Part shown: positions 315 through 34,890 of the stretch, piece after piece
Layout: the number at the start of each line of letters is the position of its first letter
Position numbering within the stretch: the first letter of the stretch is position 1
Assembly (NCBI GenBank): GCA_002428325.1
Contig: DIVR01000052.1
Location: 11,112 to 75,111, forward strand
Reading direction: 5' to 3'
Length of the DNA: 64,000 nucleotides
From: a bacterium UBP4_UBA6127
Lineage (GTDB): Bacteria; UBP4; UBA4092
Notes under the pieces: generated by a model
The model's input: only the letters and a program-made list of their open reading frames with translations
What the model was told of the DNA's origin: nothing
The model's database searches: none
Position numbers and translations under genes: made by a program

Positions 315-2306
315 GTGCCACAATTTAATTTAAAATCCTCGTTTGCTCCAAGTGGGGATCAGCCTGGTGCAATCAAAGAACTCATTAAGGCGATCCAGGA
401 TTTAAACCGTTATGTAACCTTAGTCGGGGTAACCGGATCCGGTAAAACCTATACCGTGGCAAATCTGGTTCAATCTCTGCAGAAGCCCACGTTGGTAATT
501 GCCCATAATAAAACATTGGCTGCCCAGCTATATCAAGAATTCAAAGATTTCTTTCCTGAAAATGCTGTTGAATATTTCGTCAGTTATTATGACTATTACC
601 AGCCTGAAGCTTATATTCCCACCACAGACACTTATATCGAAAAAGATTCTGCCATCAACGACGAAATAGACAAACTGCGCCAACGGGCCACCATGTCCCT
701 GCTGACTCGAAGAGATGTTATCGTGGTGGCCAGTGTTTCCTGCATCTATGGACTGGGGTCCCCTGAGATATACTTCGAGATGGTGTTAAAATTCGTAAAG
801 GGGACTTCCCTGGACAGGGATGCCGCTATCCGTAAGCTTATTTCTATCCTGTATGAAAGAAATCCTATAGATTTCAGTAGAGGAAAATTCAGGGTTTCCG
901 GTGATGTTTTGGAAATCTTCCCGACTTATGAGGATACCGCCTTAAGAATAGAGTTTTTTGGAGATGACATTGACCGCATATCCAGAATAGACCCTTTAAC
1001 CGGATCGGTGATTGAAGAGTTGGAGCAGATCACTATCTTTCCAGCAAAACATTGGGTGATGCCTGAGCTTCAGCTTCGAGCTGCAACCGAGAAGATTCGG
1101 GAAGAGCTTCAAGAAAGGGTGGAATGGTTCAATAAGAATAATATGCCATTGGAAGCAGAAAGAATCCGGCAGCGGACCAATTTTGATTTGGAGATGATGC
1201 AGGAAATCGGGTATTGTTCCGGGATTGAAAACTATTCCAGGATTCTTACGAATCGAAGTCCCGGGTCTCCTTCTGAAACCCTGATGGATTATCTTCCTGA
1301 GGATTCCCTGGTCGTAATTGATGAGTCCCATGTTACCTTGCCGCAAATCCATGGAATGTATGCAGGGGACCGCTCCAGGAAAAAGAATCTCATTGATTAC
1401 GGATTCAGGCTTCCCTCCGCTTTTGACAACCGTCCTTTAAAATTTGATGAATTCCATTCAAAGGTCAAGCATTTCCTATTTGTCTCCGCCACTCCCGGAG
1501 AATGGGAGATGAAGAAATCCGAGGGAGCCATTATTGAACAGATAATCCGCCCCACAGGACTTCTGGACCCGGAAATTCTTATTCGTCCGGTTAAGAATCA
1601 GGTGGACGATTTAGTCAATGAAATCCGCAAACAAATCGAGGTTAGCGAAAGAGTGCTGGTTACTACTCTAACCAAGAAAATGGCCGAGAATCTCACTGAC
1701 TATCTGACTCAGCTGGGAATCAGAGCCAGATACTTGCATTCAACGATTGAAACCCTTGAAAGGATAGAAATCATCAGAGGGCTTCGATTGGGAGAATTTG
1801 ATGTTCTAGTGGGAGTTAATTTACTTCGAGAAGGATTAGATATTCCTGAAGTATCCCTGGTCGCTATCTTGGATGCCGATAAAGAGGGATTTCTCCGTTC
1901 AGAACGATCCTTGATCCAGACTATTGGGCGCTGTGCCAGAAATGTTCGATCCCGGGCCATATTATATGCAGATAGAATTACTGATTCTATGAAAAAGGCC
2001 ATTGATGTAACCGAACGACGACGAAAAATCCAGTTTGATTATAATAAGGCCCATGGAATCACTCCCCAAACGATTATTCGTCCAGTGCAAGATGCGATGG
2101 TTGATACCAAGGAAATCTTGGAAGTACCCGCCAGGGAAACAGGCTTATCCGGAGAATTGCATTCCGATGAGGATTTGAATAAACTGGTAATTGAATTAGA
2201 GAAGAAAATGAAACAAGCCGCTAAAGAGCTTGATTTCGAATCTGCAGCTCATTACCGAGACAGTCTGGTAAAGTTAAAAGAGTTTATGCTGGGTATGCAA
2301 AAGTGA
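315..2306 (+). CDS. uvrB: Excinuclease ABC subunit B
   Basis: Walker [36 protein letters not shown] beta-hairpin, DESH, C-terminal UVR coiled coil ([15 protein letters not shown]). GTG start. Confidence 0.99.
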
Positions 2307-3985
2307 GAGGGTTACTGACCCATAAAATACTGAAAAATCCCATATGGTTTGGAATAGTTTTCATTATTTTAGCAGGTATCTTCAGCCGGTTTTATGGGCT
2401 AGGCACCCATAGCCTTTGGGTAGATGAAGTGATTGCCAGTTATGTATCAGCAGGTCCTGACTTGCATGCGGGCCCTGAAGATATTAAGTATATTTACCAA
2501 CAGCGTTTTAATGATGTAACCCCACCTCTACGTGATTACCTCGCCCATTTATCCTTTCGTTTCTTAGGTGTAAATGAATACGGGCTTCGCTTCTTCCCTG
2601 CCCTCTTTGGGGTTCTGGGTATCGCATTGATTTTTCTGGTCGCCCGAAGATGGTTTAATGAGGAAACAGCCTTAATTTGTGCCTTTCTTTTGTTGATATC
2701 TCCCTTTTATCTGCATCATTCACAAGATGGGAGAATGTACACCCTTTTGATGTTTTTTTCATTATCAGCTTTTTTCTGCCTTCATCAGACCCTGTTTTCA
2801 TCCCAGCATTCGTTTTACTGGGGAACAGGCTTCATCATTTTCAACCTCCTGAATATTTACCTGAGTTATTTTGGTTTCTGGTGCTTATGTACCCAGTGTT
2901 TGATTGCCCTTGTCTGGATCGGTTTGAAATCAAGAGAAACCGACCAAAGCCTTCGATACATCCTTAGAGGGTCTGGATATCTAGCTTTAGGACTGGCTAT
3001 TTTGTTTATCCTTTATCTACCATGGGTGAAAGCGATTTATTTATTTATTACCCGGAACATCCATTCTCCAGTGCCTTATCAATTACCTTTCACCCCTCCC
3101 ATCATTGATGAGGAGACCAGCCGCAACTATATCTACCATCTGAAACCTAATTGGCCTTTTTTAAAAGGATTGCTGGCTGATTTTGGACAAAAGGGATGGA
3201 TGAATTATGTTTATATTGGTTTTTTCCTTACAGGACTGCGATACCTTATTAAAACCAATGTGAAATTGGGATTGGGATTCATCTTATGGCTTACAATCCC
3301 ACTAATTATCACTTTTGCTCCTCCGGCGAAAGCCCTTTTCTTTAATCGTTATATTTCCTTTATGATGCCGGTTTATATTCTGACGACAGGTGTGGGGATG
3401 ATGCAGATTATCTATTGGCTGAAAAATAAATCGACTCCTTATATCAACCTCTCAAGTTATCCTTTCATCTTATCGATAATGGTCCTTTTTACGGTCGTTA
3501 CCCTCCCCGCTATTCGAGACCATTATAGGGTTCAGAAGCAGGATTGGAAGAAAGCCGTCGCTTTCATGATTCCCCAAATCCAGAATGAAGATGTCATTAT
3601 TGCCGGCCCTTATAATTCTTTCTGGAGTACCATGTACTACCTTCAACGCAATGGGGCCAAACGCTCTGAGTTATATCCAGCCCCCTGGAGCGGTCAGTAT
3701 TCTGAAGTAAACTTGCAGGGTAAAATCATTCGGCTTTGCCAGAAAATTCAAGATACTGAAAATCTTGCTCAATACTATCAAAACAATAATCGAGTCTGGT
3801 ACATTTCAGCCTATTATCGGACTTACCAATATAGAAATCCTTCCTATTATTCATATATTGAGTCCCATTCGGGACGCTATGCCCGATTTGATTCAGCTAT
3901 TGATGATGATTCTATCTTTGTTTTTCTATCTGATAAATTGGAACTGAAACCTACCCTGGCACCCATTTTTCCCTCAAGGAACTAA
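2303..3985 (+). CDS. GT-C fold membrane glycosyltransferase (GT39/PMT-like)
   Basis: LWVDE motif in first loop, [20 protein letters not shown], about 11 hydrophobic segments and a soluble C-terminal domain. GTG start overlaps the uvrB stop (GTGA). Confidence 0.8.
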
Positions 3986-27328: not shown

Positions 27329-29548
27329 CTATATTACCTTTTTAATTGTTTTAATCTGATAAGTCACTTCACCCTCAGGAAGAGTAATATCGAATATGTC
27401 TCCTGGTTTTTTTGATAATAAGGATTTACCTAACGGAGATAAATAGGAGATGATATTTTTAGATGGTTCAGCTTCCCATATTCCCAGAATAGTATAGATT
27501 TCTTCATGTCCTGTTGTTTGATTCATAACCGTTGTATGAGTGCCGAAAGCAATTCTTTCATCGGATATTTGACCCGGGTCGATAGGTCGGGCCCTTTCCA
27601 ATAAGTCTCTTAACTCATCGGCCTGATTCATCAGAACCTTTTGTTTCTGTTTAGCTGATTGATATTCGGCATTTTCCCGAAGGTCTCCATGAGCTCTGGC
27701 AATAGCAATTTCTTTGCTATTTTCAGGTATTTCCATCGTCATTATTCTCTGATATTCCTGCTTTTTCTCTTCATACTTCTTCAAAGTACAATAATGGGTG
27801 GCAGTGGTATCTACGGTTTCACCCGATCGCTGTTCCTTTTTGAATAAATCAGGCCGTGAATTGGTCAAGGCATATTCAACTGAACTTTTGAAATTATCAT
27901 TGAGGGAAATTGCTGAATGGAATGTATCTAGCAGATGCCGCACATCGTCCAGGGGAATATCAATCACAGCATTGCGAAGAAGCCAATATTCATCTGCCTC
28001 AATTAATTTTCTAGCTTTAGATAAAGCATTTGATTTAGCTTTTTTATCCAGGGGAATCGGAAGGATATCTCGGGTAAGATTCTCCATCCAGCCGGTAATA
28101 TCAATGACCATGTCATAACTACTATAATTATTGATTTGATATTTACCTTTTACGATCTGGGAAAGAGCCCACATATACAGCTCAGGATTATGGTATCTCA
28201 AAGCCATAATCTTTTTTATATAATTACTAATGATTTCTTTGGAATTCTCGCCTTTGAGTTGTTTAATGAGGTTTTCAAATAATTTAGGAGATATCTTCAT
28301 TAGAAGCTTATCAATTGATTCAAGCCATTTCTCAGGTGAATCCTGCAGCCATGCATCCATTATTATTTTCTGATAATCTGAATTACTGAATGAGAAGATG
28401 ATATCGATTGGATCTGAAGCTTTTGATAATAATTCGGCGATAGATTCGGGGAATGCAGGATATTCCCCTTTGATGCATTTCTTGAGATATTCGTATGCAA
28501 AATAATACTGAAGTTTTAGTACTATTTTCTCTTCATTGATATTTTGATATTTAGCAAGGATGCTTTCAGCCATCAACCTGGGAGTATCACTGATATCTCC
28601 CTGAATTTTCCGGGTTTCAGAATAACCCAGAATTATTCCCATGATTTCCTGTGGATTGGCAGCCTTCTCAAATTTATCAAAAGACTGCGGCTTGGCTGAT
28701 TGGGGAGTTGAACGTAAACGAATCATCCCTTTTCCTGTTTCATCATATTCAAAAAAGGAATCTTTCTTAATGGCTAATCGGGTATTCATCCACCATTTAT
28801 TCCAATCAGCTTCATTGATAAATCCACTTAAGAGGATTTTTTTCAATTCGTTTATTCCTAATGAATTGTCGTGTTGTCTAAGAATTCTTTTAATGAGTTC
28901 CAAGGGGTTATTTTCAATCATATCTTTTAGTTTAACAGACTCTTTCTTTAACAATATCCAATAATGGTCTTGCGGTAATTTCGTAAGAAATTCACGGGCT
29001 CCGGTAAATGAGAGCGATTTATTTCCTTCTTTCCCGAAATCCAATTGAATCTGATTCTTTACAAAATCCAGATTTTTTACAACACCGACTTTCCAAGTAG
29101 CATGAAAGAATACTTGCCCGATATCATAGAAAAAATATTCATTGATTTTCTTGAATCCTTTTTCAAAATCAATGGCGGTTTCCAGTTCCGAATAAAGTAG
29201 GTATTTATCTAATAAAATATTGGACTGATTTTTTACTTTAATGGAATTAATCAATACTTCTCTTAATGCCGGTTTAAAGATTTTCTTATCAAACATCAAT
29301 TCGCCAACAAAGATGACTCCATCATGGAGATTTCTGCTGGAATATTCCTGGATTAACATATCCAGGAATTCTCTCAAAAGAGAAGATTTATTATTAGAGA
29401 TCAATAGATGTGTTATCTGATATAGGAACCCTGAATCATAATCACCTGTTTCAATATAATTAAGCCATTCTGATTCCAAAGCATCATAATCATGGTTCTT
29501 TATGAGGGTAAGAATATTATGTTTTATGGATGAGTTATTATCTGTCAT
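27329..29548 (-). CDS. greA: Long-form transcription elongation factor GreA (about 580-aa N-terminal extension)
   Basis: C-terminal Gre domain with ARAHGDLRENAEY acidic tip, IAFGTH, YTILGIWEA, ISYLSPLGKSLL. Extension contains WNKWW. Confidence 0.88.
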   Translation of the reverse strand: MTDNNSSIKHNILTLIKNHDYDALESEWLNYIETGDYDSGFLYQITHLLISNNKSSLLREFLDMLIQEYSSRNLHDGVIFVGELMFDKKIFKPALREVLINSIKVKNQSNILLDKYLLYSELETAIDFEKGFKKINEYFFYDIGQVFFHATWKVGVVKNLDFVKNQIQLDFGKEGNKSLSFTGAREFLTKLPQDHYWILLKKESVKLKDMIENNPLELIKRILRQHDNSLGINELKKILLSGFINEADWNKWWMNTRLAIKKDSFFEYDETGKGMIRLRSTPQSAKPQSFDKFEKAANPQEIMGIILGYSETRKIQGDISDTPRLMAESILAKYQNINEEKIVLKLQYYFAYEYLKKCIKGEYPAFPESIAELLSKASDPIDIIFSFSNSDYQKIIMDAWLQDSPEKWLESIDKLLMKISPKLFENLIKQLKGENSKEIISNYIKKIMALRYHNPELYMWALSQIVKGKYQINNYSSYDMVIDITGWMENLTRDILPIPLDKKAKSNALSKARKLIEADEYWLLRNAVIDIPLDDVRHLLDTFHSAISLNDNFKSSVEYALTNSRPDLFKKEQRSGETVDTTATHYCTLKKYEEKKQEYQRIMTMEIPENSKEIAIARAHGDLRENAEYQSAKQKQKVLMNQADELRDLLERARPIDPGQISDERIAFGTHTTVMNQTTGHEEIYTILGIWEAEPSKNIISYLSPLGKSLLSKKPGDIFDITLPEGEVTYQIKTIKKVI

Positions 29549-29651: not shown

Positions 29652-29727
29652 TGGTGGAGGATAGCGGGGTCGAACCGCCGACCTCCTCGTTGCGAACGAG
29701 GCGCTCTCCCAACTGAGCTAATCCCCC
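29652..29727 (-). tRNA. tRNA-Ala(CGC)
   Basis: GGGGGATTAGCTCAGTTGGGAGAGCGCCTCGTTCGCAACGAGGAGGTCGGCGGTTCGACCCCGCTATCCTCCACCA: G3-U70 pair, anticodon CGC, encoded CCA, 76 nt. Confidence 0.97.
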
Positions 29728-29807: not shown

Positions 29808-31229
29808 TTATTTAACCCTTGATCCTGAGGGAACAGGCTCATCAGTAGTCAAAGCTATAGGAAGATTATCTGCAGTCGCAGCCAGTATCATACCCCTGGA
29901 CTCAATTCCCCTGATTTTTCTGGGTTCCAAGTTTGTCAGAAGAATCATTCTTTTCCCGACCATTTCTTCCGGAGTATATTTCAAGGCGATTCCAGCAACT
30001 ACCTGACGGGGAGTTTCTTCTCCAATATCAATTTGCAATTTGAGTAATTTATCAGCCTTTTCAACCTTTTCGGCGGATACTACCGTGCCGACCCGAATAT
30101 CCAATTTTGAAAAAGTATCATAATCCACGATATGGGTTTCTTCTTTTTTCTCAATATCTTCCATTTTTTTATTCATCTCCTCAGATTTTAGCTCTTTAAC
30201 CGGTTGTCCCTCGGAAAACTGTTTTAAGAAACGGATATCATTATCAAAGAACAATCGAATATCATCAATTCCGTATTTAAGCATCGCAATACGTTCGATT
30301 CCAAACCCGAAAGCAAATCCGCTATAGACTTCAGGGTCATATCCAACATGTTTAAAGACCTCGGGATCAACCATTCCGCATCCACCCAGTTCAATCCAGC
30401 CAGAGTTCTTGCATACCCTGCAGCCTTTACCTTTGCAGAAAAGGCAACTCATGTGAAGTTCAGCACTGGGTTCAGTAAAAGGAAAGAAATGAGGGGTGAA
30501 CCGGGTCTTACAATCTTCCCCAAACATAGCTTTTACCAATGAATCCAAGACACCCTTAAGATCTCCTAAGGTTATCCCTTTATCTACCATTAACCCTTCT
30601 ATCTGATGAAACTGATAATTATGGGTAGCATCCACAGCATCTCTCCGGTAACATCGGCCAGGAGCAATCATTCGAATTGGTGGTTGTTTGGTTTCCATGA
30701 CCCGGATTTGAACTGTTGAAGTCTGAGTCCTGAGCAAGTGTTTATCTGTGATATAAAATGAATCCTGTTCATCTCTGGCCGGATGATCGGCGGGAGTATT
30801 CAATGCTTCAAAGTTGTAATAATCAGTTTCGATTTCAGGGCCATGTTCGACAGTAAAACCCATTGAAACAAAGATTTCTTCCAATTCATAACGAATTCGG
30901 GTCAATGGATGAATCCCGCCGGTCGCAAGTTTTCTTCCCGGGACTGTAATATCCAGTGATGAAAGAGATGAAGCTTTTGTTCCTGTGGATTTCAATTCCT
31001 CTTTTTTTATATCCAACATCGAGGATATTTCGGTTTTCAATTGATTAGCCTGCTGTCCCAGGAGAGGACGCTCTTCCACAGATACAGAACCTAATCCTCG
31101 AAGGATTTCTGTAATAGCCCCTTTACGCCCTAAAAAACGGGTATTTAGCTGTTCTAATTCTTCAATATTTTTAGCTTCTTTTATAGCTTTAGCAGCTTCT
31201 GATTGTAATTGTTGGACTTTTTCGAACAT
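29808..31229 (-). CDS. pheS: Phenylalanine-tRNA ligase alpha subunit fused to a C-terminal MetRS-C/Trbp111-type tRNA-binding OB domain
   Basis: Residues 1-338 are canonical PheS (FLGRKG, HPARDEQD, LLRTQTS, QFHQIEG, FPFTEPS, GFAFGFGIER, LKQF). A 135-aa in-frame extension has FSKLDIRVG, ADKLLKLQIDIG, RQVVAGI, NLEPRKIRGIESRGMILAA. Confidence 0.93.
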   Translation of the reverse strand: MFEKVQQLQSEAAKAIKEAKNIEELEQLNTRFLGRKGAITEILRGLGSVSVEERPLLGQQANQLKTEISSMLDIKKEELKSTGTKASSLSSLDITVPGRKLATGGIHPLTRIRYELEEIFVSMGFTVEHGPEIETDYYNFEALNTPADHPARDEQDSFYITDKHLLRTQTSTVQIRVMETKQPPIRMIAPGRCYRRDAVDATHNYQFHQIEGLMVDKGITLGDLKGVLDSLVKAMFGEDCKTRFTPHFFPFTEPSAELHMSCLFCKGKGCRVCKNSGWIELGGCGMVDPEVFKHVGYDPEVYSGFAFGFGIERIAMLKYGIDDIRLFFDNDIRFLKQFSEGQPVKELKSEEMNKKMEDIEKKEETHIVDYDTFSKLDIRVGTVVSAEKVEKADKLLKLQIDIGEETPRQVVAGIALKYTPEEMVGKRMILLTNLEPRKIRGIESRGMILAATADNLPIALTTDEPVPSGSRVK

Positions 31230-31233
31230 TGGA

Positions 31234-32679
31234 TTATCCTTTTTTAAAGGGAATAGTATGGCTAAAATATGGCCTGATTTCGCCGATTAAATATAAAGAC
31301 CCAGTCACACATATCAAATCATCTGGACGGGCCTTATCCATTGCATATTTTAATGCATCCAGGCTTTTCTTGGCAATCTGGAAGGGTTTCCCGGTTTCCT
31401 TTGCCAAGTCGGTCAAGACATCAAGAGGTAACGCCCGGGTGGTGTTTGCGGAGGTTATTATGATTTCATCTGCAAGAGAAGCTAAGATTTGAATAACCTT
31501 TTTCCGCTCTTCTCCTTCAGATAACCCTAACACTAAAATTAACCGGTTATAAGAAAAATCATTTTTTAATGATTCATGGAGAGTATCGGCACCACTCTCA
31601 TTATGGGCTCCATCCAGTAATACCAGTGGGGATTCAGAAATGATTTCCATTCTTCCCGGCCAGAAAGCTTTTTTTATCCCTTCATGGATACCGGAGGTCG
31701 TCAATCGATGGATATCCGGCACTAAACAGGAATTTTCATTTTTAAACGGATTAATATTAATATCCGGCTTATCCATTTGAATTCCTTGATGGAGGTTAAC
31801 TGAATTCTGAGCTTTCAGGGATTGTTCAATCAAAACTTCTACAGTAGCTAAAGCTAACCCGATATTCTGGATTTGGTGAGAACCTGTCATTCGAGTGATT
31901 AAATTTGAATAGTCCAATAATCTTCCAGAATAATGTATTTCTTGCCCGACGGGCCATTTTAATCCATCTGCCATTTTATACTGGATTTGGTTTAGCCTGC
32001 ATTTAAAATCTTTTCCATATTGGTAGAGTTTTGCCTTTTTCCCTTCAGCGATTATTTTAATTTGATGAAGAGCCTCTCCTTCCGCAGCGGTAAGGACGAC
32101 TCCCCCTTCTTTAATAATTCCCGCCTTCTCTCTGGCTATCTCAGAGATTGTTTTTCCTAATTGTTTAGTATGATCCAGTCCGATGTTGGTTATAATCTGA
32201 ATTGAGGAATTCACCACATTAGTCGCATCCAACCGACCCCCCAAACCTGTCTCCCATACTACATAATCCACTTTAGCTTTCGAAAAATACATTAAGGCCA
32301 AAGCAGTCGTTACTTCAAAATAAGTGGGATAACACTCATCAGGTTCTTTTTTTAAATCCTCCAAGGCATGCATTAATTCTTCCATCAACCCACAGAGAGT
32401 ATCCGGCTCAATAGGAATGAGATTCAGGGTGAAACGTTCTTCCAATCTTTCAAGATGAGGGGATGTATAGGTTCCGACTGTATAGCCGGAAGAAAATAAT
32501 ATCTGGCTTAAATACTGAGCGACTGAACCTTTACCATTTGTTCCGGCTATATGGATGAACTGGAGTCCTTCCTGGGGGTTATCTAGTTTATCCAAAAGCC
32601 TTACCATATTTTCAAGGCCGAGTTTAATTCCGAAAAATTCAAGATTATTAATATAATTTAATGCCTCTTCATATTTCAT
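31234..32679 (-). CDS. folC: Folylpolyglutamate synthase/dihydrofolate synthase
   Basis: IHIAGTNGKGS, YTSPHL, TYFEVTT, ETGLGGRLDATN, IAREKAGI, WPGRME, LDGAHN, TGSLYLIG. Confidence 0.96.
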   Translation of the reverse strand: MKYEEALNYINNLEFFGIKLGLENMVRLLDKLDNPQEGLQFIHIAGTNGKGSVAQYLSQILFSSGYTVGTYTSPHLERLEERFTLNLIPIEPDTLCGLMEELMHALEDLKKEPDECYPTYFEVTTALALMYFSKAKVDYVVWETGLGGRLDATNVVNSSIQIITNIGLDHTKQLGKTISEIAREKAGIIKEGGVVLTAAEGEALHQIKIIAEGKKAKLYQYGKDFKCRLNQIQYKMADGLKWPVGQEIHYSGRLLDYSNLITRMTGSHQIQNIGLALATVEVLIEQSLKAQNSVNLHQGIQMDKPDININPFKNENSCLVPDIHRLTTSGIHEGIKKAFWPGRMEIISESPLVLLDGAHNESGADTLHESLKNDFSYNRLILVLGLSEGEERKKVIQILASLADEIIITSANTTRALPLDVLTDLAKETGKPFQIAKKSLDALKYAMDKARPDDLICVTGSLYLIGEIRPYFSHTIPFKKG

Positions 32680-32793: not shown

Positions 32794-34890
32794 ATGATTT
32801 ATCAAATTGACCAGAGTTTATTTATCTTTTTAAACCAACAATTGCATAATCCTTTATTGGATCGTTTTTTCCCCTTCATCACAAATGCCGGTAATTTTAA
32901 AGCTATCCTGCTTTTCGCCGCCATTTTTATTTTCTGGAAGGGAAAATGGCCATTACGGATAACTCTTTTATTATCAATATTTTCACTCATTATTTCCAGC
33001 AGCATCTCTGAAATATTGAAGGAAACCATTTGCCGAATCAGGCCCTTATGGGTCATTGAGAATACTCGTCTTTTAGTGGGAGGCACCCATTCCTATTCTT
33101 TTCCGTCTGCCCATGCTTCCAGTATGTTCTCGGTCGTAAGTATCTTTATTTATCGTTATAGAGACAAAAAATGGCTGACAGGGATATTACTCAGCCTGGC
33201 ATTGCTAGTGTCTTATTCCAGGATATATGTGGGAGTTCATTATCCTCTGGATGTACTGGGCGGCATAATCATCGGCCTATTGACAGGCATTTTCATCCTC
33301 TATTTTTATCAGAAATGTCCGTTTCTTGAATATGATCAACAGAAATCCAGGGTGAAAGTAAACTATCAATCAGCTTTTTACTTTTTATTCATTTTATTAA
33401 CTTTTTTTCGATTATCCTATATTGCCTCCGGTTCTAGGTCATTAACTCCGGAGGAAACCCAATATTGGGACTGGTCTAGAAATCTTGATTGGAGTTATTA
33501 CAGTAAACCACCCTTTATCGCTTATCTCATTCATCTGTTTACGGTCATTGGGAAGTCCTCGGCTTTCTTTGTTCGGCTTGGTTCTGTTTTGATATTTTCA
33601 GTTCTGGGGATAATTACCTACAAATTTTGCCTGAGATTGATTAAAGATACCCGGATAGCCTTTTGGTGTTTTGTGGTATTCAACCTGATTCCCCTGTTTT
33701 CCGCTGGGGCTTTGCTTATGACAACAGACACCCCTTTGGCTTTGTTCTGGGGATTAACTGTCTATGCCCTTTATATTGCCTTATTCGAGAATAAGCCTTC
33801 CTGGTGGTATCTGACAGGTCTTTTTTTCGGATTGGGGATGCTGAGTAAATATACAATGGCTTTATTAGCTCCCGGTATTTTATTATTCCTATTATTGCAA
33901 CCAGAGAATCGGAAATGGCTCTATCGAAAAGAACCCTATCTGGCCGGTTTAGTCGCCCTGTTTTGCTTTCTGCCCGTTATCTATTGGAATTATACCCATG
34001 ATTGGGTTACTTTTAAACATGTCGCCGGACAGGCCCATGTGAATGAAGGATTTATCCTGAAATGGAAATATTGCCTTGATTTTGTGGGTTCTCAGGCCGG
34101 AGTCATCACACCCTTCGTTTTTTTAGCCATGCTTTATTACACCTATAAAGCCATTTGCCGGTATTTTTCCCGAACCTTAGATGCTAAAGAATTGTTTCTT
34201 CTTTGTCTGTCAGTCCCTGTTTTCCTCTTCTTCCTTTTCAAAAGTATGCAGGGAAAAGTTGAAGCAAACTGGGTGGGAACTGGATATTACACCTGGATAA
34301 TGTTTTTAGTTATTGATTTTGAGAAAAGAAGATTGGCTGTCCCATCAATTATCCGTAAGAAATTGAATATTCTCGCTATCTCCAGTCTTTTAGTTGCCTT
34401 TTTAATAACCCTGGTTATGCATGACAGTTCTATCATCAGAAAACTGGGAATCAATCTTCCTCCCAAAAAAGACCCCACCAGCCGCCTTTATGGATGGGAT
34501 GATTTAGGTACTCAAGTTTCCCAGATAAAATCTCAAATGCCTTCCCCTGATTCCACTTTTGTCTTCAGTGATTATTACCAACTCTCGGCTGAATTAGCTT
34601 TTTACACGGAGGGTCAGCCCCGGGTTTATTGTATAAATCTGGGTCGAAGGATGAACCAATATGACCTTTGGGAAAACATTTCTACGCAGAAAGGGCGGGA
34701 TGGCCTTTTTGTGACCAATGGAAGACACTCGTCCATAGATTCGAGAATTACCAGCTCTTTTGATAAAATTGAATCTCCGATAATCATTCAAACAAAACGA
34801 AAAGGTCTTCTATATCAAGAGTTTACAGTCGTACGGTGTTATGGATTCCATGGAACGATTCTTGATGAACATCAAACGGACCGTTATTAG
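32794..34890 (+). CDS. PAP2 phosphatase fused to ArnT/GT39-like GT-C glycosyltransferase
   Basis: PAP2 motifs KETICRIRP, SFPSAH, SRIYVGVHYPLD. GT-C motifs PEETQYWDWSRNLDWSYYSKPP, TTDTP, LSKY. Confidence 0.88.
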   Translation: MIYQIDQSLFIFLNQQLHNPLLDRFFPFITNAGNFKAILLFAAIFIFWKGKWPLRITLLLSIFSLIISSSISEILKETICRIRPLWVIENTRLLVGGTHSYSFPSAHASSMFSVVSIFIYRYRDKKWLTGILLSLALLVSYSRIYVGVHYPLDVLGGIIIGLLTGIFILYFYQKCPFLEYDQQKSRVKVNYQSAFYFLFILLTFFRLSYIASGSRSLTPEETQYWDWSRNLDWSYYSKPPFIAYLIHLFTVIGKSSAFFVRLGSVLIFSVLGIITYKFCLRLIKDTRIAFWCFVVFNLIPLFSAGALLMTTDTPLALFWGLTVYALYIALFENKPSWWYLTGLFFGLGMLSKYTMALLAPGILLFLLLQPENRKWLYRKEPYLAGLVALFCFLPVIYWNYTHDWVTFKHVAGQAHVNEGFILKWKYCLDFVGSQAGVITPFVFLAMLYYTYKAICRYFSRTLDAKELFLLCLSVPVFLFFLFKSMQGKVEANWVGTGYYTWIMFLVIDFEKRRLAVPSIIRKKLNILAISSLLVAFLITLVMHDSSIIRKLGINLPPKKDPTSRLYGWDDLGTQVSQIKSQMPSPDSTFVFSDYYQLSAELAFYTEGQPRVYCINLGRRMNQYDLWENISTQKGRDGLFVTNGRHSSIDSRITSSFDKIESPIIIQTKRKGLLYQEFTVVRCYGFHGTILDEHQTDRY

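Follow-up and report, generated by a model that had tools for sequence, protein, structure and literature searches.

The window, the whole stretch of 64,000 nucleotides that was analysed, carries on its minus strand a single reading frame, pheS::trbp (29808..31229; 473 codons from an ATG start to a TAA stop, from the list of open reading frames and the sequence), that joins PheS, the alpha subunit of PheRS, to an OB-fold domain. The PheS moiety (residues 1-338; 30216..31229, minus strand), identified by PF02912, PF01409, TIGR00468 and AF2/Foldseek, is composed of an N-terminal coiled coil (PF02912, residues 21-81) and a class II core (PF01409, residues 92-338) that spans the full profile (2-246 of 246) and in which motif 3, GFAFGFGIER, begins at residue 304. 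This moiety ends in FLKQF at residue 338 (bases 30218-30216), without a stop codon, and is followed by the linker SEGQPVKELKSEEMNKKMEDIEKKEETH (28 residues, 339-366; 30132..30215, minus strand), which contains eight glutamates, one aspartate and six lysines. The Trbp111/MetRS-C-type OB-fold domain (residues 367-473; 29811..30131, minus strand), assigned by PF01588, TIGR00399 and a PDB match, begins with IVDYDTFSKLDIRVG and closes with GSRVK at the stop, as read from the sequence; the PheS/OB junction region of the fused protein includes FLKQFSEGQPVK. Three Pfam domains thus lie in one frame: Phe_tRNA-synt_N (21-81, 69 bits), tRNA-synt_2d (92-338, 350 bits) and tRNA_bind (378-470, 102 bits), the last scoring 101.7 bits against a cut-off of 27. 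The whole protein also exceeds the equivalog cut-off of the NCBIfam pheS model TIGR00468 (356.9 versus 237.45 bits) and the curated cut-off of metG_C_term, TIGR00399 (136-138 versus 116.65 bits), whose match spans residues 348-473. The architecture given in the preliminary description, a PheS without a stop that continues through a charged, E/K-rich linker of ~28 residues (bases 30215-30132) into a complete MetRS-C/Trbp111-type OB domain, is borne out by this single frame and its three domains.

Directly upstream, and separated from pheS by a gap of 4 nt, lies a folC-like Mur-ligase gene (31234..32679, minus strand) whose position is conserved: a folC-like neighbour is also found at L001, L003, L084-L086 and L092. 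The two genes are probably co-transcribed. Downstream, 80 nt beyond the stop of the fusion, a tRNA-Ala(CGC) gene (29652..29727, minus strand) was identified by both ARAGORN and Rfam. A tRNA-Ala follows the fused gene or a free trbp gene at seven loci (the window, L084, L085, L086, L003, L001 and L087), and L092 has a further one in the same position. The next gene downstream (27329..29548, minus strand) encodes a 739-aa GRAD/GreA-like protein with the Pfam domains GreA_GreB_N and GreA_GreB at its C-terminus; it is a synteny marker common to fused and unfused loci, and HTH_GRAD is found in the homologous loci. Promoter-like sites in the region were no more frequent than in shuffled sequences (9 versus 10.2 +/- 2.8), a terminator scan found none between the fusion and the tRNA-Ala, and an Rfam scan returned two tRNAs only, with no T-box or leader upstream. 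Neither pheT nor metG is present in the 64-kb window or in the 10 kb that flank it on each side (~84 kb).

The OB domain is of the Trbp111 type. Its best match in the PDB is Trbp111 of Aquifex aeolicus (1PYB/8VTZ, 100 bits) and its closest homologues are free proteins of 105-110 aa. The pocket residues K394, P436, R437, I439, S444 and M447 correspond to K33, P74, R75, I77, S82 and M85 of Trbp111; F78 of Trbp111 is replaced by R440, arginine being the majority state at this position (62 of 75 free homologues). Both dimer-interface segments, N-terminal (1-15) and C-terminal (90-111), are present and can be aligned with those of Trbp111. A free-standing form of ~110 aa is encoded in the sister clade described below and not in the window, where the domain is in frame with PheS; nor is it attached to MetRS, being joined to PheS with no metG in the surrounding ~84 kb. 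Free bacterial homologues of Trbp111 are usually annotated automatically as 'MetRS beta subunit'. Other members of the wider family fit less well. The CsaA export chaperone was rejected on scores of 61-65 bits with TIGR02222 (cut-off 119.65) and 62-66 bits with NF007496 (cut-off 171), and the B2 domain of PheRS beta on 34.7-35.7 bits with pheT_bact (cut-off 402.65) and 27.7 bits with PheRS beta itself (2RHS_B), as against 100 for Trbp111. An EMAPII-like domain was likewise discarded, the reading frame stopping at the end of a plain OB fold, residue 473, without a pseudo-dimer extension. A co-crystal of Trbp111 with tRNA, published in 2024, has contact only with the 3′-terminal C75-A76 (PMC11286949), which contradicts the earlier proposal that such a domain binds the tRNA elbow.

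In the AF2 monomer model (pTM 0.50), the PheS part matches bacterial PheRS alpha chains (Foldseek E-values 6e-41 to 1e-23) and the OB domain has a pLDDT of 83-92 over residues 371-450, falling to ~75 at its C-terminal end. Between these two confident domains the linker has a pLDDT of ~30 and is predicted to be a disordered, flexible tether.

A missing stop codon in a single contig invites the suspicion that a stop was missed, that the assembly is chimeric or that read-through is due to a private mutation. A single-base error could in principle erase a stop, and nothing else speaks for such an origin. Against it, the identical protein is encoded on three contigs, one of which is an independent Logan assembly, and the same three-domain architecture is found in the homologues P0001-P0004 and L092 (72-99% identity), drawn from Logan, JGI, ENA and NCBI; L092 was the one additional fused locus recovered with a junction-specific DNA pattern from JGI metagenomes. 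Contigs with the fused gene include ENA ERZ21831019 ctg33745l and ERZ27315036 k141_435950, and JGI 3300021167 Ga0216365_126855 and Ga0116193_1003246. The in-frame fusion has been kept across four diverged lineages (72-86% identity) between which synonymous sites are saturated. Over the OB domain, dN (0.05-0.24) is close to that over PheS (0.09-0.19) and dN/dS is 0.04-0.12; by this measure, purifying selection on the OB domain is as strong as that on PheS. The linker sequence, with a dN of 0.2-1.2 and a dN/dS of 0.3-0.8, drifts; its length (26-28 aa) and frame are kept in all four lineages. An assembly error or private read-through is ruled out by the independent assemblies and the four diverged fused lineages, and the chance that the fusion is an artefact is considered negligible. 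The worry about a missed stop, raised in the preliminary description, is answered by comparison, as none of these sequences has a stop at the junction. On the evidence of the compared sequences, the analysis shows a genuine gene fusion, far beyond chance and selectively maintained.

How this fusion arose can be followed in a sister clade, whose PheS proteins are 68-75% identical and in which a separate trbp gene, encoding a tRNA_bind protein of 109-110 aa, lies 60-133 nt after pheS. In one member (P0005, PheS 75% identical) the free trbp is 76 nt downstream and the gene order is folC-pheS-trbp-tRNA-Ala-GRAD; in two others, both on short contigs, it is 133 nt (P0006, 71%) and 60 nt (P0007, 68%) downstream. 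The unfused sister is represented by a 990-kb contig, ENA ERZ25039471 contig_8206. The linker of the fused proteins stands where this clade has its pheS-trbp intergenic spacer, and in one fused lineage (P0004) it still holds 'MSEI', the start of the unfused trbp. A neighbour-joining tree built on the PheS core places all fused sequences in one monophyletic group (92.5% bootstrap), which points to a single read-through fusion; its sister is the adjacent-gene clade (96.5%), and 92% support joins the two. These comparisons show an ancestor in which pheS was followed by a free-standing Trbp111-type gene of ~110 aa, with pheT elsewhere in the genome, and one descendant lineage in which the pheS stop was lost and the spacer of ~60-130 nt came to be read in frame as a flexible acidic/basic linker of 26-28 residues. 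The preliminary description was right about the unusual fused architecture and did not foresee its origin from a prior pheS-trbp gene pair.

Such an architecture is exceptionally uncommon. Among the best 120 homologues of PheS, 115 are 335-358 aa long and lack a tRNA_bind domain, in agreement with the earlier statement that bacterial PheS normally has no C-terminal appendage. A search of 1.84 billion representative proteins found this order of domains in the present clade and in one eukaryote-like PheS-EMAPII protein (P0252) only. Among GTDB species representatives the closest PheS in the matches listed has 58% identity, a figure that is not taken to mean absence from GTDB. In a comparison of UvrB, relatives down to 70% identity were followed by a 'MAG: bacterium' at 68% and by generic Clostridia at ~62%, and PheS behaved in much the same way. 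Candidate fusions that were rejected include two junction-spanning fragments (P0263 and P0304), which are PheS-PheT read-throughs with B1-B2 sequence, and a set of contig matches over 'residues 1-450', which consist of pheS and a normal pheT (~800-900 codons) whose B2 matches weakly at 28-39% identity. No description of a PheS-Trbp fusion was found in the searchable literature, as the preliminary description had supposed, and PheRS is absent from the known hosts of OB fusions given in a 2024 structural paper (PMC11286949).

Close to the junction, an SD-like GAGGAG (30182-30177) and in-frame ATG codons at 30176 (residue 352) and 30164 (residue 356) are located as originally reported (30162..30182, minus strand). 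On the sequence, they could be what remains of the former trbp start, or else serve as an internal initiation site. An in-frame ATG with a purine-rich run 0-12 nt before it occurs in all four fused lineages, at differing positions, and for this reason a certain amount of separate OB protein may continue to be produced. The locus would then yield two products, the fusion and a free Trbp-like protein of ~118-122 aa initiated at one or more ATG codons in the linker. Spacings in favour of this are, in the window, GAGGAG 0 nt before ATG352 and 12 nt before ATG356; in P0002, GAGGAG-6 nt-ATG; in P0003, GAGGG-7 nt-ATG; and in P0004, AAAGG-7 nt-ATG at the relic MSEI start. Dual products are nevertheless thought unlikely: the ATG codons of the different lineages do not occupy homologous positions, Glu, Lys and Gly codons would in any case give rise to purine-rich SD-like runs, a methionine somewhere in 28 random codons has, by our own estimate, a ~50% chance, and the region has no excess of promoter-like sites.

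OB domains of the Trbp/EMAPII type are a recurrent addition to aminoacyl-tRNA synthetases, found with MetRS, TyrRS, LysRS and the scaffold proteins of multisynthetase complexes. Free Trbp111 of A. aeolicus (1PYB, 8VTZ/8VU0) has in common with the domain in the window its OB fold, length, 3′-CA pocket residues and dimer-interface segments; it differs in that the latter is covalently placed on the PheS C-terminus by a disordered linker of 28 aa, so that the N-terminus of the OB domain is no longer free. The C-domain of bacterial and archaeal MetRS (e.g. P. abyssi 1MKH/1RQG) is a homologous OB fold that is similarly positioned at a synthetase C-terminus behind a K/E-rich linker, where it lowers the Km for tRNA and dimerises the enzyme (PMC11286949). 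MetRS is a class I enzyme, whereas the host here is the catalytic subunit of a class II (alpha-beta)2 heterotetramer. The B2 domain of PheT, a distant relative within Pfam tRNA_bind, is itself part of the PheRS holoenzyme and is encoded right after pheS in canonical operons; however, it sits on the other subunit, between B1 and B3, and the domain in the window is not derived from it. EMAPII-type appendages (the human TyrRS C-domain, AIMP1/p43, Arc1p, and Entamoeba LysRS and MetRS) are Trbp-related tRNA-capture modules acting in cis or in trans. Beyond the OB fold they have a C-terminal pseudo-dimer extension, frequently together with a basic region that binds the tRNA body, in contrast to the plain Trbp fold seen here. 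The eukaryote-like P0252 has the same order of PheS, linker and OB domain, but combines a bacterial-type PheS with an EMAPII-type OB domain bearing the extension; judged by its sequence, it is the product of an independent joining of PheS to an OB domain.

On balance we favour, with somewhat better than even confidence and largely by analogy, a genuine fusion of a former gene pair in which the OB domain acts as a tethered capture module for the tRNA 3′-CA end at PheRS. The pocket of A. aeolicus Trbp111 grips the universal 3′-terminal C75-A76 of mature tRNA with micromolar affinity, and fusions of OB domains to aminoacyl-tRNA synthetases lower the Km for tRNA (PMC11286949 and its Discussion). 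With its complete Trbp111-type pocket, the domain in the window would catch tRNA 3′ ends. Attached 34 residues beyond motif 3 of the class II core, by a linker that should be long enough to sweep the active-site entrance, it would raise the local concentration of tRNA at PheRS and hand the 3′ end over to the PheRS active site, reducing the Km for tRNA in the manner of the homologous MetRS C-domain. Since PheRS is an (alpha-beta)2 enzyme and the OB domain has kept the Trbp dimer-interface segments, the two copies of this domain in each enzyme may also pair across the alpha subunits as a Trbp-like dimer. The lowering of Km, the hand-over and the dimerisation are inferred from MetRS and Trbp111. 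The benefit is not self-evident, as the active site of PheRS would have to compete with the OB pocket for one 3′ end; Trbp111 binds all mature tRNAs, and hence would bring no specificity for tRNA-Phe; and the advantage of covalent linkage may be small, given that only one small clade has the fusion and its sisters manage with separate genes.

A rival reading is a near-neutral 'frozen accident', in which the genes became fused through proximity alone and the OB domain retained its general Trbp111 role, chaperoning or protecting the 3′ ends of tRNAs, with no specific benefit to PheRS. This scenario, a minority possibility in our estimation, is consistent with an adjacency of pheS and trbp that is older than the fusion, the restriction of the fused form to one small clade, a linker sequence that is almost unconstrained, the presence of the recognised CA end on all tRNAs and the existence of a closely related free trbp that is not beside pheS (P0128). 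It accounts less readily for the retention of frame and linker length through saturating divergence in four lineages, for the independent PheS-EMAPII fusion of the eukaryote-like sequence, and for the conservation of pheS-trbp adjacency throughout the sister clade, which is suggestive of a functional connection and of an existing role for free Trbp as a helper of PheRS in trans in that clade. This last point can be taken further, with the fusion read as a 'Rosetta stone': PheRS would be the physiological partner of free Trbp111 in this lineage, the Trbp of the sister clade being a dissociable third component of PheRS that feeds in tRNA 3′ ends or receives and protects Phe-tRNA and possibly stands in for a B2-less PheT, and the OB domain of the fused clade becoming permanent and cross-linking two alpha subunits through a Trbp-type dimer. 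Taken jointly, these proposals are speculative and tentative.

Compensation for a reduced PheT has also been considered, whereby the PheT of this lineage would have lost its B2 OB fold and a Trbp module, beside or fused to PheS, would replace it. The trbp gene does occupy the usual place of pheT, which (with ~800-900 codons and a detectable B2) directly follows pheS in at least 45 of 80 GTDB loci; the others comprise one match cut at a contig end and 34 without an OB match. In addition, pheT is absent from the ~84 kb around the fused gene, and the pheT accompanying a more distant relative at 59% identity (P0008) lacks B2, its N-terminus passing directly from a B5-like B1 to B3_4 at residue 96. 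The domain is nevertheless of the Trbp type and not the B2 type (100 versus 27.7 bits; 138 versus 36 bits). Moreover, we know of no demonstrated tRNA contact by B2 in the T. thermophilus PheRS-tRNA structure, which makes the need for compensation doubtful, and we regard this explanation as improbable. More improbable still is that the OB domain is a detached MetRS C-domain whose fusion couples PheRS, by OB heterodimerisation, to a MetRS lacking its own. The metG_C_term score is above its cut-off, and in MetRS the domain does mediate dimerisation (PMC11286949), but all free Trbp111-type proteins are by convention annotated 'MetRS beta subunit' and metG is not nearby. A heterodimer would, besides, need a partner OB domain on MetRS, the opposite of a MetRS that lacks one.

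The fusion probably has a modest effect, in a small clade of uncultured bacteria, and the case is instructive as a variant without amounting to a new principle. It provides a natural before-and-after series, one clade keeping the two genes side by side and its sister having them fused, and a clean example of domain accretion in which an intergenic spacer was read through into a linker. By linking a Trbp-type domain to the catalytic subunit of PheRS, the fusion also offers a testable idea for Trbp111, namely that it may serve a particular synthetase by handling the 3′ end of its tRNA.

The fused pheS::trbp gene runs from 31229 to 29808 on the minus strand as one open reading frame of 473 codons, with an ATG start and a TAA stop. 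The preliminary description held that bacterial PheS normally carries no C-terminal appendage, and this is borne out by the 120 best homologues, 115 of which are only 335-358 aa long, placing the usual PheS end point at residue ~338. The PheS part of the window protein (residues 1-338) ends there with ...DIRFLKQF; the stop is replaced by a 28-residue linker, SEGQPVKELKSEEMNKKMEDIEKKEETH, containing 8 Glu, 1 Asp and 6 Lys, and the OB part follows (IVDYDTFSKLDIRVG...GSRVK). Phe_tRNA-synt_N (residues 21-81, 69 bits), tRNA-synt_2d (92-338, 350 bits) and tRNA_bind (378-470, 102 bits) are all matched in the same frame (Pfam), confirming that PheS lacks a stop at FLKQF and continues in frame into a full OB domain. 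The NCBIfam models pheS (357 bits, curated cut-off 237) and metG_C_term (136 bits, cut-off 117) are likewise both exceeded. In an AlphaFold2 model (mean pLDDT 78, pTM 0.50), the coiled coil and catalytic core are confident, as is the OB barrel (pLDDT 83-92 over residues 371-450, ~75 at the C-terminal end), whilst linker residues 340-365 score ~30; PheS and the OB domain are thus modelled as independent modules on a flexible linker. Foldseek places the PheS part with the PheRS alpha structures of bacteria (E 6e-41 to 1e-23). The tether is the PheS C-terminus, 34 residues past motif 3, so that the OB domain is anchored on the catalytic module itself.

The OB domain is most similar to Aquifex-type Trbp111 (A. 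aeolicus, 1PYB, and the 2024 tRNA co-crystal 8VTZ; 100 bits), followed by archaeal and bacterial MetRS C-domains (73-80 bits) and by YgjH, CsaA and EMAPII (45-68 bits), with the PheRS beta chain the lowest of these comparisons at 27.7 bits. This ranking rules out a displaced B2 domain of PheT. In a 5.8-billion-protein collection, the best matches are free proteins of 105-110 aa, many automatically named 'MetRS beta subunit'. The window protein belongs fully to the PheS family, and the appendage belongs fully to the Trbp111/MetRS-C OB family; what is new is only their combination.

An assembly artefact or private read-through, against which the preliminary description had advised checking for a missed stop, is excluded: the identical protein occurs on three contigs, one of which Logan assembled independently from run SRR5323159. 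Four further fused homologues from Logan, JGI, ENA and NCBI data (P0001, 99% identity; P0002, 85%; P0003, 74%; P0004, 72%) are 471-474 aa long and carry the same three Pfam domains, and a junction-specific DNA pattern recovered an additional fused JGI contig, L092, arranged as in the window. Between the fused lineages synonymous sites are saturated (dS >1.3 or undefined). The OB domain shows dN of 0.05-0.24 and, where computable, dN/dS of 0.04-0.12; for the PheS core dN is 0.09-0.19, dN/dS not being computable at saturated dS; for the linker dN is 0.2-1.2 and dN/dS 0.3-0.8. The linker sequence therefore drifts almost freely, yet it has kept an open frame and a length of 26-28 residues, which, together with the low dN/dS of the OB domain, indicates that this domain and its covalent link are both under selective maintenance.

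The nearest PheS proteins without an extension, P0005 (75%), P0006 (71%) and P0007 (68%), are each followed by a separate tRNA_bind gene of 109-110 aa, after gaps of 76, 133 and 60 nt, respectively; the synteny of the P0005 locus matches that of the fused loci, the other two contigs being short. Neighbour-joining analysis of the PheS core (200 bootstraps) unites the five fused sequences (92.5%) as sister to the three adjacent-but-separate sequences (96.5%), and the two groups are joined at 92%. The free proteins of the sister clade begin MSEII(N/S)(Y/F)E, and the P0004 linker retains ...GAAMSEIDNGLVSYDQF, which, read from this match, is the fossilised start of the former downstream gene; M-E-[DE]-... 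stands at a comparable place in the window protein and P0002. These data are most simply explained if the pheS stop was lost once and translation then ran in frame through a short spacer, which became the linker. In the more distant P0008 (59%), pheT directly follows pheS without pheS-trbp adjacency, and a similar free trbp gene from another organism, P0128, does not adjoin pheS. Neither a fusion nor an adjacent short trbp gene was seen at pheS in 80 GTDB genomes: a normal pheT of ~800-900 codons comes next in 45, one more match is truncated by the end of its contig, and the other 34 loci, whose downstream gene lay outside the check, have no OB match.

When all 1.84 billion cluster representatives were scanned by HMMER with the last 68 PheS residues, linker and OB domain as query, only two proteins reached E <= 1e-30: P0002, representing the fused clade, and P0252. 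The latter (618 aa; a 1.9-kb transcript-like contig, L088 1-1901, Logan ERR4084828) comprises a low-complexity N-terminal presequence, bacterial-type PheS, a basic 54-aa linker and an OB domain scoring 122 bits to AIMP1/EMAPII (8ONG/1E7Z). It shares the PheS-linker-OB plan but differs in its EMAPII-type C-terminal extension, and is an independent fusion, probably the alpha subunit of an organelle-targeted PheRS from a microbial eukaryote. Comparison with the PDB adds Entamoeba LysRS as a further OB-bearing synthetase. Two metagenomic fragments, P0263 (203 aa) and P0304 (162 aa), run from the PheS C-terminus without a stop into PheT B1-B2 sequence; they come from other lineages and look like PheS-PheT read-through fusions, unless they reflect sequencing errors. 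The preliminary description treated the fusion as not known to have been described, and no description of a PheRS alpha-subunit OB fusion was found in the literature searched, the coverage of which is incomplete and does not prove absence.

The organism, an uncultured bacterium, has ~40% G+C. Fused homologues share the order folC, fusion, tRNA-Ala(CGC), GRAD/GreA-like gene. The folC-like gene ends 4 nt ahead of the pheS start (31229-31236), and the two frames overlap by 11-17 nt in P0002 and P0003, spacing that suggests translational coupling; Rfam revealed no T-box or leader RNA upstream. The tRNA-Ala(CGC) gene (29652-29727, minus strand), preceded by a TTGACA...TATAAT-like site at 29786-29757, lies 3' of the fused gene or free trbp in every locus checked (window, L084, L085, L086, L003, L001 and L087), with a tRNA-Ala also in L092; a tRNA gene directly behind that of a tRNA-binding protein is thus a conserved placement. 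Beyond it, a 739-aa GRAD/GreA-like protein (27329-29548, minus) carries its GreA/GreB N- and C-domains at the C-terminal end alone (residues 586-736), after a long N-terminal region annotated HTH_GRAD in homologous loci, and its gene adjoins the pheS locus in fused and unfused relatives alike. The plus strand encodes two large membrane proteins (32794-34890 and 2303-3985) that bear PMT_2/STT3-like glycosyltransferase domains, one of them (698 aa) with an N-terminal PAP2 phosphatase domain, a fusion conserved beside folC in related loci. UvrB, encoded at 315-2306 (plus), has its first labelled matches at 68% identity ('MAG: bacterium') and ~62% (generic Clostridia), after others down to 70%.

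Binding to the tRNA elbow, as originally presumed for this domain, is contradicted by the Trbp111 co-crystal and mutants, in which this OB class contacts mature tRNA solely at the 3'-terminal C75-A76 (Kd ~3 uM), through K33, the backbone at E32/K73, R75, I77, F78, S82 and M85, with binding almost lost in R75A (PMC11286949). The equivalents in the window protein, K394, P436, R437, I439, S444 and M447, are all identical to Trbp111; F78 is replaced by R440, a state shared by 62 of 75 free homologues, and this pocket pattern is common to all fused and sister sequences. OB fusions to MetRS and other synthetases reduce the Km for tRNA, and the Trbp dimer is very stable, formed via N- and C-terminal segments (PMC11286949) that are present in the window protein. 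By analogy, the likely role is that of a cis-acting tRNA 3'-end capture module on PheRS: the tethered domain would catch 3' ends close to the active site and pass them on, perhaps also taking the charged end on exit, and in an (alpha-beta)2 enzyme the two OB domains may pair with each other. The OB pocket competes with the active site for the same nucleotides, and Phe specificity cannot come from the OB domain.

It is also plausible that two neighbours fused near-neutrally and the OB domain keeps a general Trbp role, as the narrow distribution and drifting linker would allow; however, the long-term retention of the frame, the conserved pheS-trbp adjacency in the sister clade and the separate origin of a eukaryote-like PheS-EMAPII fusion speak against this. 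Less probably, a fused or adjacent Trbp module might compensate for a PheT without B2, a suggestive idea in that trbp occupies the usual position of pheT, and the pheT of P0008 seems to pass from B1 straight to B3_4. There, the gene after pheS (L090 4092-4544) has a weak B5 match at residues 1-62, presumably B1, and B3_4 already from residue 96, leaving no room for a B2 OB fold, so that this bacterial-type PheRS beta, cut by the contig end at residue 151, seems to lack B2. Internal initiation in the linker might yield some free OB protein as well. The GAGGAG (30182-30177) and two in-frame ATGs (30176 and 30164) of the preliminary description are present, and an in-frame ATG lies 0-12 nt past a purine-rich SD-like run in each fused lineage, but the ATG positions differ among lineages, such runs are expected anyway in Glu/Lys/Gly codons, and promoter-like sites are not enriched. 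The proposed docking of MetRS by the OB domain reflects only an annotation convention.

This is a real, conserved and rare fusion with a readily traceable evolutionary history, valuable chiefly as a natural experiment tying free Trbp111 to one specific synthetase.
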